Source: a virus. Taken from it: a stretch of 64,000 bases of DNA. How positions within the stretch are numbered: position 1 is the stretch's first letter; each line of letters starts with the position of its first letter. The notes beneath the pieces are model-generated. The model was not told the DNA's origin, ran no database searches, and worked only from the letters and a program-made list of their open reading frames with translations. This document shows, piece after piece, positions 19,835-37,489 of this stretch. The position numbers were made by a program, and so were the translations under genes. The stretch lies in IMG/VR virus record IMGVR_UViG_3300017917_003053, positions 1-64,000 of that record. One strand, given 5' to 3'.

Positions 19835-19844
19835 ACAAGAACAT

Positions 19845-19918
19845 GGGGCGTTGCCGCCGGTAGTGGCACATACTCTTATAAGGTATTCAAAAGGTAGGTT
19901 CGACTCCTACACGCCCTA
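19845..19918 (+). tRNA. tRNA-Ile(UAU), atypical D arm
   Basis: Acceptor GGGGCGT/ACGCCCT+A; anticodon arm ATACT-CTTATAA-GGTAT; T arm GTAGG-TTCGACT-CCTAC; CCA not encoded. Confidence 0.75.
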
Positions 19919-20159
19919 TTCCATATTAGGTGTATTCTAATATAGCCTTCCAGATATTATCCCACCTAATAGAAAGAAAAACATGAAATATAGATTATTG
20001 TTTATTTTTTTAGTTGCCATTTTATTTGCTTCATTAACTATGAATGTTATTCATTCAGAATCTTTAGATGCTGCACATAAAACAATCGAAATACATGATA
20101 TGGTTCAAACAAAAGTAATCAATAGTCTGCATGATAGACTTATGCAATTGGAAGATTGA

Positions 20160-20514
20160 GGGTGCGTAAAGGTTTCGACTACATATCGGAGATTATATTA
20201 GCAAGTAGTGGTTGATCGACAGGCCACTTTAAAAGTCGATTAAACGCTTTAACTGGCGAAACTCAGTTAGCACTTGCTGCCTGACAAAAAAGGGCAGTAA
20301 CAGACTGCGATACCGAATGAGGGTAGGGATCAAAAGTCTGTCGTTAAATCCCTCTGCACTTACAATATCCAACGGGTTGTAGGTTAAGAGCAGTTGGTAA
20401 GGCTAGAAAAATCTTGTGTGTTCTATATTCTAGTTTAACTCATGAATACAATAAACTTGTAGAAGATGTTTTTGATGCTATGATAGGACGCGGGTTCGAC
20501 TCCCGCCGCATCCA
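20160..20514 (+). ncRNA. ssrA: tmRNA
   Basis: Acceptor GGGTGCG/CGCATCC with G3-U70; T arm GCGGG-TTCGACT-CCCGC; tag frame 20255-20284 encodes (A)GETQLALAA-stop; about 355 nt. Confidence 0.93.
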
Positions 20515-26085: not shown

Positions 26086-26158
26086 GGGAGTGTAGTCCAA
26101 AGGCAGAGACAGTGGACTTAAAATCCATACAGTGTGGGTTCGACTCCCACCACTCCTA
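26086..26158 (+). tRNA. tRNA-Leu(UAA) with short variable loop
   Basis: Acceptor GGGAGTG/CACTCCT+A; anticodon arm GTGGA-CTTAAAA-TCCAT; T arm GTGGG-TTCGACT-CCCAC. Confidence 0.9.
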
Positions 26159-26181
26159 CTAATTTATCTTAATATAAACAA

Positions 26182-31499: not shown

Positions 31500-32372
31500 A
31501 TGGCTGTTCCATTTATGTTCGTTGATGGCAACCTTACGGTTGTTCTGAATAATAAGAGTTATCAGGTTCTTCCTGACCACATTAACTATAAGATGATTCT
31601 GGAAGCACTTCCTACAGCAACCGCTGATGAACTGCTAAAGATTGTTGATGTAGAAAAGGCAGTCGCCGCATTTAGCGACGGTCTTGTTGAGATTAAGAAT
31701 GGCAAGGTTTACTACGAGGGTGATGAAGTTCATGGCAGTATTAGTAAGCGTATTCTAGAGTTTATGAGTAAGGGTCTGCCTTTCCAGCCTCTTGTCACAT
31801 TCCTAAATAACCTTATGACAAATCCTAGTATGCAGAGTCAGAAGGAACTTTATGATTTCCTTGAGCATGAGCATCTGCCTATTACTGAGGATGGTCATTT
31901 TCTTGCCTATAAGGCAGTCAGGAATGACTACATGGATAAGTATCGCGGAATTTTCGACAACCATGTTGGAAATGTTTGCGAAATGACACGATCAAAGGTT
32001 GACGATGATCGTGGCCGAGGTTGTTCTAATGGACTTCATGCTGGTGCATTGAATTATGTTGCTGGTTATGGTAGTCTTGAGGCTGGCGATAAGATCGTCA
32101 TTGTCAAGATTAATCCCCGTGATGTTGTGAGTGTTCCTAGTGATTGTAATTTTGAGAAACTTCGCACTTGCCGATATGAAGTAGTCGGAGAGTATCAAGG
32201 CGAACTTCTCAAGCCACTTTATTCGGCTAGTCTAGATAATGGTGTTGAATATGACTATGACGATGAAGAGGAATATGATAACGATTATGATTGGGGATGG
32301 AATGATGAAGAAGAAGATATTGATGATGAATACTATGAAGATGATGAGGAAGATTACGACGATTATAACTAA
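31500..32372 (+). CDS. rIIB: rIIB-like protein
   Basis: PITEDGHFLAYKAV, CSNGLH, VKINPRDVVSVP.D, KLRTCRYEV; acidic tail. Confidence 0.92.
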   Translation: MAVPFMFVDGNLTVVLNNKSYQVLPDHINYKMILEALPTATADELLKIVDVEKAVAAFSDGLVEIKNGKVYYEGDEVHGSISKRILEFMSKGLPFQPLVTFLNNLMTNPSMQSQKELYDFLEHEHLPITEDGHFLAYKAVRNDYMDKYRGIFDNHVGNVCEMTRSKVDDDRGRGCSNGLHAGALNYVAGYGSLEAGDKIVIVKINPRDVVSVPSDCNFEKLRTCRYEVVGEYQGELLKPLYSASLDNGVEYDYDDEEEYDNDYDWGWNDEEEDIDDEYYEDDEEDYDDYN

Positions 32373-34447: not shown

Positions 34448-35338
34448 ATGGCAAATTCTATCAGACCTACACAGTTTTCAGACATTATTGGACAATCAGA
34501 CGTAATTAATAGACTCAATATTATTATTTCTGGATGCAAAATTACTAATAGCGTAGTACCTCATATATTAATTGACGGTCCTCCTGGCCTTGGTAAAACA
34601 ACTATTGCTAGTGCTATTGCAAATGAACTAAATGTAAATCTGCACACTCTTAACGCAGCAAGTATTAGAAGTGCTAAGAATATTGTTCCATACCTTATGG
34701 GTATCGCCCCAAGGTCTATTCTTTTCATAGACGAAATCCATAGACTGCCTAAGTTAGTAGAAGAATTTTTGTATCCTGTAATGGAAGATTTTGTTCTAAC
34801 TTTATCAGATAAAGACGATCAAGAAATCGTAGAGTTGCCCATGTTCACTTTTGTTGGGGCAACAACTAGTGGAGGTAGTTTAAGTCAACCTTTTTATGAT
34901 AGATTTTCTATCAAAGAACATTTGTCTTTTTATAATGATGATGAGTTAGCCAAACTAGCAGGATTGAACGCCAAAAAGTTCGGACTAAATGTTTCAGAGG
35001 ATGATCTATTAGAGATTGCCAAAAGAAGCAAAGGAACTCCTCGCATCCTTAATGCCAGACTACAATGGTACAGAAATTGTGTACTCACACAAAAGAGTAG
35101 TATGTCCGTAGATGAAATTTTTACTATCCAAGGCATAGACTCTAACGGATTTGATATTTATGATCGTTCATACATTAGTGTTCTAAAAAAGAATATTGGC
35201 AATCCTCTTGGTCTGAAAAGTATTTCATCAATAACAGGCATCGCTATAGACACCATCGAAAATAGTATAGAGCCTTTTTTACTCAGAAAAGGATTCATAC
35301 AGAAAACAAGCAAGGGAAGGGTTTTAGGTAAAGTATGA
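34448..35338 (+). CDS. ruvB: Holliday junction branch migration helicase RuvB
   Basis: RP..F.D.IGQ, GPPGLGKTT, FIDEIHRL, GATT, DRF, GTPRI, EPFL..GFIQKT.KGR. Confidence 0.93.
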   Translation: MANSIRPTQFSDIIGQSDVINRLNIIISGCKITNSVVPHILIDGPPGLGKTTIASAIANELNVNLHTLNAASIRSAKNIVPYLMGIAPRSILFIDEIHRLPKLVEEFLYPVMEDFVLTLSDKDDQEIVELPMFTFVGATTSGGSLSQPFYDRFSIKEHLSFYNDDELAKLAGLNAKKFGLNVSEDDLLEIAKRSKGTPRILNARLQWYRNCVLTQKSSMSVDEIFTIQGIDSNGFDIYDRSYISVLKKNIGNPLGLKSISSITGIAIDTIENSIEPFLLRKGFIQKTSKGRVLGKV

Positions 35339-35655
35339 CTATAAAAAATATAGATATTATCCATATAGTATTAATTATTCTAAATATAGCCTTTTTTCTT
35401 TTTGGTTATATTTTAGGTCGATTAAATAATACCAATGGTGTATATCATAGTCAGAATAATACCCAATCCTTTTTCACAAAACATAAAACCCAAGAGCAGG
35501 ACAGTAACAAAAAAATTGATATTGACTCTACAAAAGTAGTGATAGATATCAAAACGGACAATATGCAAAAAAAATATGATAATCTTGGAGAAACCAAACA
35601 AAGTAACGAACAAATATCTTCAGCAATAAATAAACTAAAAAATATGAGGGGATAA
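35335..35655 (+). CDS. single-pass membrane protein preceding the actin-like gene
   Basis: N-terminal TM IIHIVLIILNIAFFLFGYILG; basic, possibly amphipathic C-terminus. Confidence 0.75.
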   Translation: MTIKNIDIIHIVLIILNIAFFLFGYILGRLNNTNGVYHSQNNTQSFFTKHKTQEQDSNKKIDIDSTKVVIDIKTDNMQKKYDNLGETKQSNEQISSAINKLKNMRG

Positions 35656-35656
35656 T

Positions 35657-36658
35657 ATGGCAAAAGGTTTAGATGTAGGCACAAGTTTTATAGTACTTTC
35701 TTCAGATTCTGAGAATGGTGTGATCTATAAAGATTTCAGAGATGCTTTTTATATTATTAAACCTACAACACCAGTAGCCACAAAAATGATTGAAAAAGGA
35801 TTATCTGGTAAAATCTTTATTAAAGATGCTGACGGATCATTTATTCTCTTAGGCAAAGACGCTATAGAGAAAGCCATAGAAAGAAATGATACAGCCAAAA
35901 GACCCATGTTTAAAGGCGTAGTGTCAGCAAAAGAAAAAGACGCAAAAAGAATCTTAGCATTTATACTGAAGGAAGTAGCGGGTCAAGCATCAGAACCAGA
36001 TGAAAAACTAGTCTTTTGCGTTCCTGCTCAACCAGTTGACCAAGAAGATGAAGATTTTGATGTCGGGTATCATGAAGACGTAGTAAAAACTATTTTAGCA
36101 GAATGTGGTTATGATGCAAAAGCAATCAATGAAGCAGAAGCATTATGTTATGCTGAATTAGAAGATACAGATTATACTGGAATAGGTATTAGTTGTGGTG
36201 CTGGAATGACAAATGTTTGCGTCATGTTAAACGGTGAACCTACTGTGGTTTTTAGCACAACCAAGTCAGGAGACTGGATTGACCGTATGAGTGCTGTGGC
36301 GACCGGAGAGCCTGACAGTGTTGTTCAAGCAGAGAAAGAGGGCGGGAACTTTAAAATAGGTGAACCTAACGAAAATCCAGTATTAGCAGCAGTATCTGCT
36401 TACTATGATAGACTCATTGATTATACAACAAAACAATTAAGTTCTGCTTTAACAGGACATAAACTTTTACCAAAATTTAAAGACCCTCTGAATATTGTTG
36501 TTGCTGGAGGGACATCACAGGCTAATGGATATATAGAAAAATTTGCAGAAAAATTGAAAGATAATAATTTCCCCTTGGCTGTTAAGGAAATCAAACACGC
36601 AGCAGATCCATTACACGCTGTTTCAAAAGGGTGCCTAATAGCGTCAAAAGTTTTATAA
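35657..36658 (+). CDS. actin-like ATPase (MreB/MamK/Mad28/Salactin-like)
   Basis: Phosphate-1 GLDVGTS, connect-1 INEAEA, phosphate-2 ISCGAGMTN, adenosine VVAGGTS, connect-2 PLHAVSKG. Confidence 0.88.
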   Translation: MAKGLDVGTSFIVLSSDSENGVIYKDFRDAFYIIKPTTPVATKMIEKGLSGKIFIKDADGSFILLGKDAIEKAIERNDTAKRPMFKGVVSAKEKDAKRILAFILKEVAGQASEPDEKLVFCVPAQPVDQEDEDFDVGYHEDVVKTILAECGYDAKAINEAEALCYAELEDTDYTGIGISCGAGMTNVCVMLNGEPTVVFSTTKSGDWIDRMSAVATGEPDSVVQAEKEGGNFKIGEPNENPVLAAVSAYYDRLIDYTTKQLSSALTGHKLLPKFKDPLNIVVAGGTSQANGYIEKFAEKLKDNNFPLAVKEIKHAADPLHAVSKGCLIASKVL

Positions 36659-36682: not shown

Positions 36683-37489
36683 ATGAGACAATTCATGATA
36701 TTTTTATGCTTGTTTTTTGTCTCATACAGTATAGTTCTTGGAGGAACAAGACATCCTCATACTCCAGACTCAAGACATCTTGAATACGGTAAAAAATTTA
36801 AGTGTGTTGCTAAATTAGCCGGAACATATAAAGATAAAAAATATTATGAAGCATCTTCTGTCATAATTCGACCAAAAGTTATATTGACAGCAGCACACGT
36901 TGTATCCAATAGTCAAGAATGTTATGTGGTCCTTAATGACAATAGAATTTATTTGAATAAAATTATTATTCCCAAAGACTTTAAAGAACATGCTTTTGGC
37001 TTAAATGATATAGCAATAGGATTTACATCTGAAGATATGAAACAAGATTTTTATCCAGAGTTATATACAGATAGAGATGAAGTCGGCAAAGTGGTTTCTG
37101 TTGCAGGATTTGGAGTATATGGAACATTTGATACTGGAGCAACAGATGTTGATGTTCAAAGAAGGGCAGGGTCAAATGTTGTAGATTATATTGATCAAGG
37201 ATTATTAATATGTAAACCAGATGATCAAAACAGAACATCTTTAGAATTTTTAATTGCAAGCGGAGATAGTGGAGGTGGATTGTTTATAGCTAAAAAAATA
37301 GCAGGAATTAATTCTTGTGTTATGGCTTCAGACAAAATAACTAATTCGTCATATACTGACGAGTCTGGACACACAAGGGTCAGCGACCATGCAGAATGGA
37401 TAGAAAAAATTATTGCCCTTGAGACAGAAGGACTTGACAAAGAACTGCCTTCTGCTACAATAGTATTGAATACTCTACAAAGTAAATAG
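36683..37489 (+). CDS. secreted trypsin-like (S1) serine protease
   Basis: Signal peptide-like N-terminus; LTAAHV, NDIAI and GDSGGG triad motifs. Confidence 0.9.
   Translation: MRQFMIFLCLFFVSYSIVLGGTRHPHTPDSRHLEYGKKFKCVAKLAGTYKDKKYYEASSVIIRPKVILTAAHVVSNSQECYVVLNDNRIYLNKIIIPKDFKEHAFGLNDIAIGFTSEDMKQDFYPELYTDRDEVGKVVSVAGFGVYGTFDTGATDVDVQRRAGSNVVDYIDQGLLICKPDDQNRTSLEFLIASGDSGGGLFIAKKIAGINSCVMASDKITNSSYTDESGHTRVSDHAEWIEKIIALETEGLDKELPSATIVLNTLQSK

Follow-up and report, generated by a model that had tools for sequence, protein, structure and literature searches.

A volactin-family actin and a single-pass membrane partner form an accessory gene pair in a tailed phage: a candidate membrane-tethered cytoskeleton

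Introduction

In the virus record IMGVR_UViG_3300017917_003053 of IMG/VR, which belongs to a tailed phage, a gene for an actin-like ATPase lies directly behind a gene for a small membrane protein, raising the question of whether this phage brings a membrane-bound actin cytoskeleton of its own into the cell and what it would use it for. The phage cytoskeletons known to us are either tubulins (PhuZ/TubZ) or actins that work through a DNA-binding adaptor (AlpC). The DNA analyzed here, hereafter the window, comprises the first 64 kb of the record, which is 153,002 bp long, scores 100% in CheckV and has no end repeats; positions refer to the window unless stated otherwise. A sequence-only reading had proposed a viral cytoskeleton module at this locus. 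Here we report that the actin and its partner are a tightly linked, accessory gene pair under purifying selection, and we argue that together they probably form a membrane-tethered filament.

Results

The pair consists of the actin, P0001, and the partner, P0002, with the following features:

35657..36658, + strand: actin-like ATPase of the volactin/Mad28 family, P0001, 333 aa (from PF25216, AlphaFold, Foldseek, VIA-align and dN/dS)
35335..35655, + strand: partner and putative membrane anchor, P0002, 106 aa (transmembrane part ~5-31, variable linker 31-60, conserved tail 61-106)
35347..35427, + strand: transmembrane helix of the partner, residues ~5-31 (from hydropathy, the AlphaFold model and a basic residue right after the helix)
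35515..35652, + strand: conserved tail of the partner, an extended segment plus a C-terminal amphipathic helix (residues 94-104), predicted to be the actin-binding element
35646..35651, + strand: Shine-Dalgarno-like GAGGGG within the final codons of the partner, 5 nt ahead of the actin start (read from the sequence)

The sequence-only reading had set out this layout correctly: the 106-aa open reading frame (ORF) overlaps the end of ruvB by 4 nt, and a single base separates it from the 333-aa ORF. The Pfam model Volactin (PF25216) matched P0001 at 219.2 bits (cut-off 35, E 1e-64), residues 1-329 aligning with model positions 1-320. All five actin-fold motifs recognized beforehand are present (D6/G8/T9, E159, S179-x-G181-x-G183, G284-G285-T286 and G325) and are invariant or nearly so in an alignment of 80 relatives of 31-92% identity, in which D6, G8, E159, G181, G183, D209, K227, G284, G285 and G325 never varied and S179 was kept in at least 90%. 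The AlphaFold model of P0001 (predicted local distance difference test score 95.3; predicted template modelling score, pTM, 0.91) found the MamK filament as its top match in Foldseek (template modelling score 0.74), followed by Mbl/MreB and BeeR. VIA-align gave Z 27.6 with BeeR (root mean square deviation 3.1, 295 residues aligned), 26.4 with MreB and 22.7-23.9 with crenactin, BiP, actin, ParM and FtsA. PilM, FtsA, EutJ and BiP were also among the structural matches, and the modelled actin fold, common to filament formers, does not by itself prove that P0001 polymerizes. These results agree with the proposal of an actin-fold protein from a filament-forming family. Sequence searches of the PDB, and searches of PHROGs and BFVD, returned no close relative.

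Simple counting on one pair of sequences, the phage and a 96%-identical relative, gave a ratio of nonsynonymous to synonymous substitution (dN/dS) of 0.022 for the actin (dS ~1.0, dN 0.023) and 0.134 for the partner. Because of these ratios and the Pfam E-value, we do not regard the pair as a product of chance. Conservation of the actin was near-uniform, with 78-96% identity in ~150 loci. No fusion of partner and actin was found, and the N-terminal extensions of distant actins contained neither tail nor transmembrane helix. P0123, P0130 and some ten other representatives are volactin-family actins of 680-770 aa that are interrupted by LAGLIDADG inteins, inserted at phosphate 2 or immediately behind it (around residues 180-205); in two of them the inteins were confirmed by Pfam.

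A single segment of the partner is strongly hydrophobic (Kyte-Doolittle 19-mer value of 2.57 at residue 8), and the partner's AlphaFold model alone (pTM 0.31) shows helices at residues 5-31, 46-52 and 94-104, the remainder being extended. The single N-terminal transmembrane helix of the sequence-only reading was borne out; its 'charged tail' is, more aptly, a conserved and for the most part extended segment that ends in an amphipathic helix and carries a net charge of +3. We retrieved 563 homologues of the partner at E<=0.001. Column identity was 0.51 in the transmembrane part, 0.45 in the linker and 0.72 in the tail, where I63, I72, I94, K100 and L101 are invariant. Searches assigned the partner to no Pfam or PHROG family and to no DNA-binding family or fold, and the ESM Atlas offered only unnamed viral clusters, under 0.9. 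Being conserved yet modelled as unfolded on its own, the tail looks as binding peptides do.

Hydropathy, the model, the basic residue after the helix and natural protease fusions together suggest that the N terminus of the partner faces outwards and its tail inwards. Three phages, whose proteins are 51-57% identical, encode fusions of the order signal peptide, trypsin, transmembrane helix and tail, two of which were seen directly before an actin. If made as read, the fusions would place the protease outside and the tail inside with the actin; they may also be tolerated accidents, in view of the kept start Met of the partner or a duplicated junction. The carriers are L079:4848-5993, P0402 and P0403, with a duplication of 9 residues at the junction in P0402; apart from these trypsin fusions, no longer form of the partner was found. 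A further partner ORF (L529:14821-15120) ends without the C-terminal helix after an apparent frame change and has no actin within 5.5 kb, pointing to decay or a sequencing error.

The pairing of the transmembrane gene with the actin gene, proposed from this one genome, is kept in related phages. The partner lies directly upstream of the actin in all 79 close phage loci with a whole actin, and the gap is 1-5 nt in 77 of them. When loci were instead picked by the partner (n=80), the actin was adjacent in 69, followed after a 0.6-kb insert in 7 (endonuclease-like in both loci read), and lay ~5 kb away on the same contig in 3, the last being cut by a contig edge. Picking by rIIB, which is independent of both genes, gave 18 loci spanning ruvB to the downstream anchor genes: eight had both genes, ten had neither and none had a single one, so that actin and partner make up an accessory unit. 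On a tree of rIIB and RuvB, this pattern requires at least three changes, and L487 is without the pair yet almost identical to L005 and L482. Four of the rIIB-picked records were without a volactin elsewhere, their incompleteness (22-48% complete) leaving absence unproven.

Two neighbouring genes frequently accompany the pair:

34448..35338, + strand: ruvB, context only (NF000868 above cut-off)
36683..37489, + strand: signal-peptide trypsin-like protease, a frequent neighbour (PF00089)

We rejected both as required parts of the module. The overlap with ruvB is incidental, because other genes intervene in 33 of the 79 loci (ruvB adjoins the partner in the other 46) and because ruvB remains in 10/10 loci that lack the pair. 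The protease is not a required part either, since it is present in 9/10 loci without the pair as well as in 8/8 with it.

Farther afield, genes with the same order of transmembrane helix, linker and tail precede actins of 36-55% identity in phage contexts (L085, L380, L383 and L384, of which L380 matched the phage tail profile at E 2e-4). Soluble tail proteins precede the distant phage actins L083, L087 and L088, as well as L381, where an inserted gene lies in between; no tail partner was seen upstream of L084, L089 and L382, and L385 is cut. In L384, a ribosomal protein S21 gene (1549-1773) adjoins the phage-context volactin.

By sequence, P0001 is a member of the volactin family (PF25216), Mad28-type genes included. 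The sequence-only reading had favoured a branch of Salactin and Mad28-like proteins over MreB or ParM; the kinship with Mad28 (29-31% identity) stands and that with Salactin does not. Salactin identity was rejected because P0001 scored 29.3 bits against the 400 of NF053533, where true salactins score 570, and gave only short local BLAST hits (E ~1e-3). The NCBIfam models of MamK, BeeR and MreB were likewise below cut-off (26/400, 28/530 and 12/293 bits, respectively), excluding membership of those families, and ParM membership was also rejected, ParM and Alp structures ranking lower than MamK, BeeR and MreB. Relatives in GTDB (33-40% identity) came mostly from metagenome-assembled genomes (MAGs) of Planctomycetota, and also from Omnitrophota, Acidobacteriota, Elusimicrobiota, Nitrospirota, Methanosarcina and Thermoplasmatales. 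PF25216 was present in 111 of 301 Planctomycetota genomes at E<=1e-20 and in ~93 at E<=1e-60. In two Nitrospirota genomes, a family member of 406-415 aa lies ~1-2 kb from mamK and scores ~288 bits on PF25216, which places volactin and Mad28 in one family; we take these genes to be Mad28 from their position, extension and phosphate-2 Ser, rather than from a named Mad28 sequence. They were found by an order-wide search; in G531 and G533, the regions flanking mamK that were read had contained no Mad28.

Trees were built with FastTree or quick IQ-TREE, leaving out the salactin row. In both, P0001 fell in a clade (support 98-99) whose members, where sampled, come from phage-like contexts. This clade is distinct from those of the archaea, of Mad28 and of most planctomycetes, and the archaeal volactins formed a clade of their own (support 100) that excludes P0001. 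Approximately unbiased (AU) tests rejected joining the five-row subclade of P0001 to the archaea (p 0.016), to Mad28 (p 0.005) or to a third, planctomycete group (p 0.037); they add little, because other viral sisters, along with the long-branch planctomycete and MreB rows, were omitted and a quick tree was used, with groups named afterwards. The backbone is poorly resolved, and we therefore claim no donor or direction of transfer. Recent capture from a haloarchaeon or a planctomycete was rejected. All ten deep representatives whose contigs were read look viral, and the same holds for two records of huge phages (485 and 595 kb). These, L083 (LR745208.1) and L084 (LR756511.1), encode volactin-family actins, and that of L083 groups with the Planctomycetota clade in one tree and not in the other.

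To compare the tail across phages, bacteria and archaea, we extracted, by position, the C-terminal 75 residues encoded by the genes that precede cellular family members. In 35 of 58 such tails we found a common C-terminal motif whose closing amphipathic helix has a Lys-Leu-Lys core, and the motif recurred in 18/20 further planctomycete loci, several of them close kin of the training set. A tail-like neighbour was detected at E<=1 in 56/79 cellular volactin loci (including the 35 training loci). The motif is sometimes in the gene downstream or two genes up, which indicates that the tail goes with the actin and not with a fixed position. A planctomycete-only tail profile ranked P0002 first of the 194 ORFs of the phage (E 0.031, next 1.6). 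Applied to 1,424 ORFs from related loci, it listed a partner in each of the 42 best rows displayed, these partners being homologues of each other. A profile from seven haloarchaeal-type (CdpA-like) neighbours likewise ranked P0002 first of the 194 (E 0.14, next 0.72). The Haloarcula volactin neighbour matches DUF7139, and P0002 does not. Profile-profile comparison gave E 0.00064 for planctomycete and phage tails, 0.00023 for haloarchaeal and planctomycete tails and 0.0056 for haloarchaeal and phage tails, against 0.057 or worse for 22 control phage families.

Several cellular loci are of interest in their own right. Tandem pairs of volactin-family actins with a tail gene occur in Omnitrophota (L119, L129, L147 and L166) and Planctomycetota (L092, L113 and L128) and represent an undescribed cellular system; in L119, genes for a HEAT-repeat protein, ParA and a coiled-coil protein come first. 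At L146:2905-5310, a MinD-like ATPase, a tail protein and a volactin-family actin are followed by a LysM protein with a transmembrane helix and a tail-like end. A distant planctomycete actin clade (~20% identity; L547-L558, from G110, G132, G260 and others, with L272 and L282) is preceded by proteins of 600-800 aa, most with one transmembrane helix and a conserved C-terminal helix, the layout being alike and the tail different. In a second volactin-family clade of planctomycetes (32-34%; L563, L560, L561 and L562), the upstream coiled-coil proteins also end differently.

The pair lies within a run of replication and recombination genes on the + strand; morphogenesis genes are on the opposite strand, at ~84 to 144 kb of the record. 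A terminase large subunit, rIIA/rIIB, RecA, DnaB, DnaG, SSB and a two-piece DnaE identify the virus as a tailed phage that supplies a replication set of its own. DnaE is split over two ORFs (69774-71651 and 72509-74065 of the full record) with a 3'-5' exonuclease ORF (71827-72525) between them, and the + strand of the window encodes a tmRNA with a 9-residue tag (20160-20514), tRNA-Ile(TAT) (19844-19919) and tRNA-Leu(TAA) (26086-26159). Median identity across loci was 86% for the actin, a value inflated by ranking the loci by actin similarity, 87% for rIIB (31500-32372), 69% for RuvB and 46% for the partner; rIIA, at 57%, was far lower than rIIB. As stated before, no ParR-like gene or centromere is visible near the pair, a repeat scan confined to 31-41 kb giving only chance-level pairs. 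A promoter scan of the phage was near chance (63 against 50 +/- 7).

We slightly favour Planctomycetota as the host, on sequence similarity. For another protein of the phage, the nearest ESM Atlas clusters are from Planctomycetota (0.95 and 0.93), with a 40% match in one such genome. Shine-Dalgarno words precede 43% of the phage's genes against a background of 9%; since such frequent use speaks against a Bacteroidota host, this argues against that phylum. On the other side, binning placed a 78%-identical relative of the actin in a Flavobacteriales MAG, and the phage protein does not nest within the planctomycete copies. That relative (L090) is a phage-type actin on an 8.9-kb contig of a marine MAG, probably a phage fragment.

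Discussion

Among characterized systems, the pair is closest to volactin (VolA, HVO_2015) of Haloferax volcanii, whose filaments are dynamic in vivo, bound to the membrane by their tips through unknown factors and involved in cell shape (PMC10869688). PF25216 covers both actins over their whole length, P0001 is 35-36% identical to haloarchaeal members, and in both settings a gene encoding transmembrane segments, a linker and a tail adjoins the actin, the profile of the haloarchaeal C termini ranking the phage partner first. Unlike P0001, which is phage-encoded, accessory and in a separate clade, VolA is chromosomal and apparently essential. HVO_2016, a protein that resembles CdpA and has four transmembrane helices, has already been reported beside H. 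volcanii volactin, no mechanism being given (PMC12126565). Neighbours of this type (DUF7139) have three to four transmembrane helices and two tail helices, whereas P0002 has one of each, and only the C-terminal helix region is similar. P0001 resembles Mad28 of deep-branching magnetotactic bacteria (PMC10653835, PMC12713370), which forms filaments in vitro with ATP-gamma-S, in the Ser at phosphate 2 (S179) and the x-E-x of connect 1 (E159); it differs in lacking the N-terminal extension (it starts at phosphate 1) and magnetosome genes and in its clade, and no tail-bearing neighbour was seen beside the Mad28-type genes described above. The highest cellular identities are with volactin-family operons of Planctomycetota, Omnitrophota, Elusimicrobiota and Nitrospirota, in which the neighbour ends in a similar tail; these neighbours, however, are mostly soluble and of 180-800 aa, and the phage actin is not nested among those of the operons. 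Salactin (NF053533, PF25229) shares the actin fold and is a haloarchaeal dynamic filament of another family.

Phage actins had been called little characterized, which is fair, though they are not unprecedented: AlpC of the Corynebacterium glutamicum prophage CGP3 is an actin with a co-transcribed adaptor and is needed for efficient phage DNA replication (PMC4446434). It belongs to a different actin family, both by that paper and by Pfam, and its adaptor AlpA binds DNA at alpS, whereas P0002 is a membrane protein, and the scan described above turned up no site of that kind. The PhuZ spindle of jumbo phages, a tubulin unrelated to P0001, is a possible functional analogue in organizing infection.

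We propose, with confidence evenly poised, that P0001 and P0002 are an accessory two-gene phage cytoskeleton whose membrane-tethered filament scaffolds phage replication or assembly. Both genes would be expressed during infection from the replication and recombination run, translation of the actin being coupled to that of the partner through the Shine-Dalgarno sequence in the partner's last codons. The partner would span the inner membrane of the host and extend its tail into the cytoplasm, as hydropathy and the fusions suggest; this tail very likely folds upon binding the actin, which, judging from its family, should in all likelihood bind and hydrolyse ATP and polymerize. By analogy with volactin in Haloferax, the filament would be tied to the membrane, probably by its end. 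The most likely use, and the weakest step of the proposal, would be to gather or position phage DNA replication and capsid assembly; we favour it because of the precedents of AlpC and PhuZ, the replication genes around the pair here and the virion genes around the actins of L087 and L088.

Several observations weigh against this proposal. No DNA-binding adaptor is linked to the pair, leaving attachment of DNA or capsids unexplained, and neither cellular relative with a known role, in cell shape or in the magnetosome chain, handles DNA. The pair is not essential, being missing at the locus in 10/18 relatives. Membrane tethering appears not to be universal, given the soluble or missing partners of several distant phage actins, and planctomycete partners have no transmembrane helix. 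The shared tail motif is a short amphipathic helix; its cross-domain scores are weak (E 0.03-0.14, hhalign probability 7-44%), and the reverse search, with a phage-only tail profile on cellular neighbours, was not significant (best E 0.3), so that homology of the phage and cellular tails is likely and not proven.

The strongest competitor, which we consider distinctly less probable than a scaffold, retains the membrane-tethered filament and lets it act on the host, shaping the cell, holding the envelope or delaying division for more phage, possibly with the secreted trypsin-like protease. Volactin is itself a shape factor (PMC10869688), the anchor reaches the membrane and not DNA, protease fusions occur in three phages, a LysM protein with a transmembrane helix and a tail-like end follows the cellular homologue in L146, an accessory distribution fits a host-manipulation gene, and rIIA/rIIB lie nearby. 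Yet the protease persists where the pair is absent, the fusions may be accidental, and the soluble partners in L083, L087 and L088 lie among virion-type genes.

It is unlikely that P0001 is instead a non-filamentous or oligomeric ATPase on the cytoplasmic tail of a membrane protein, organizing a small envelope complex in the manner of PilM-PilN or FtsA-FtsN. A transmembrane partner coupled one to one and bearing a short conserved tail is the PilM-PilN layout, proteins of this kind occur among the structural matches, and the usual Asp at phosphate 2 is replaced by Ser. The top matches, however, are filament formers (MamK, BeeR and MreB; Z 26-28 against about 21-23), near-uniform conservation suits a polymer, and the two family members studied so far both assemble into filaments, the Ser being identical in Mad28 (PMC10653835). 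Still less probable is a decoy that jams a volactin-family system of the host by co-polymerizing with it or competing for its partners. The close family members with tail-bearing neighbours in nearly a third of Planctomycetota genomes would offer a target if the host is a planctomycete, but the phage actin shares just 33-40% identity with any cellular copy, falls in a separate clade and, under strong purifying selection, has retained both its cognate partner and every catalytic position. Partition of a plasmid-like prophage by a ParMRC/AlpAC-type system is very improbable: volactin dynamics resemble those of ParM (PMC10869688) and AlpC-AlpA is a known phage actin pair (PMC4446434), but the partner is a transmembrane protein with no DNA-binding fold, 31-41 kb holds no repeat array, and ParM and Alp structures rank lower.

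Within the openly accessible literature, searches on volactin, Mad28, MreB-like proteins with phage and phage-encoded actins returned no report of this module, the phage-actin hits being AlpC and tubulins. The actin family and the neighbour layout are known; the phage setting and the miniature single-pass anchor are new. More tentatively, and at somewhat less than even confidence, we suggest that the volactin family underwent an old radiation specific to phages, whose actins, each with a cognate adaptor, serve many unrelated large phages as a widespread actin cytoskeleton parallel to PhuZ; that phages, Planctomycetota and euryarchaea have all kept the C-terminal helix of the adaptor as a general element for binding volactin; and that HVO_2016 would thus be what fastens the tips of volactin to the membrane in Haloferax. 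For this attachment by the tips (PMC10869688), the shared tail singles out as a candidate the C-terminal region of the CdpA-like neighbour. Placing volactin, Mad28 and the unstudied actin of about one-third of Planctomycetota genomes in one family bears on how planctomycete cells, which lack FtsZ, are organized. At 106 + 333 aa, the phage pair is small enough to suit reconstitution. If the actin found in these hundreds of aquatic phage contigs is indeed tethered to the membrane, it would add a third design to the phage cytoskeletons.

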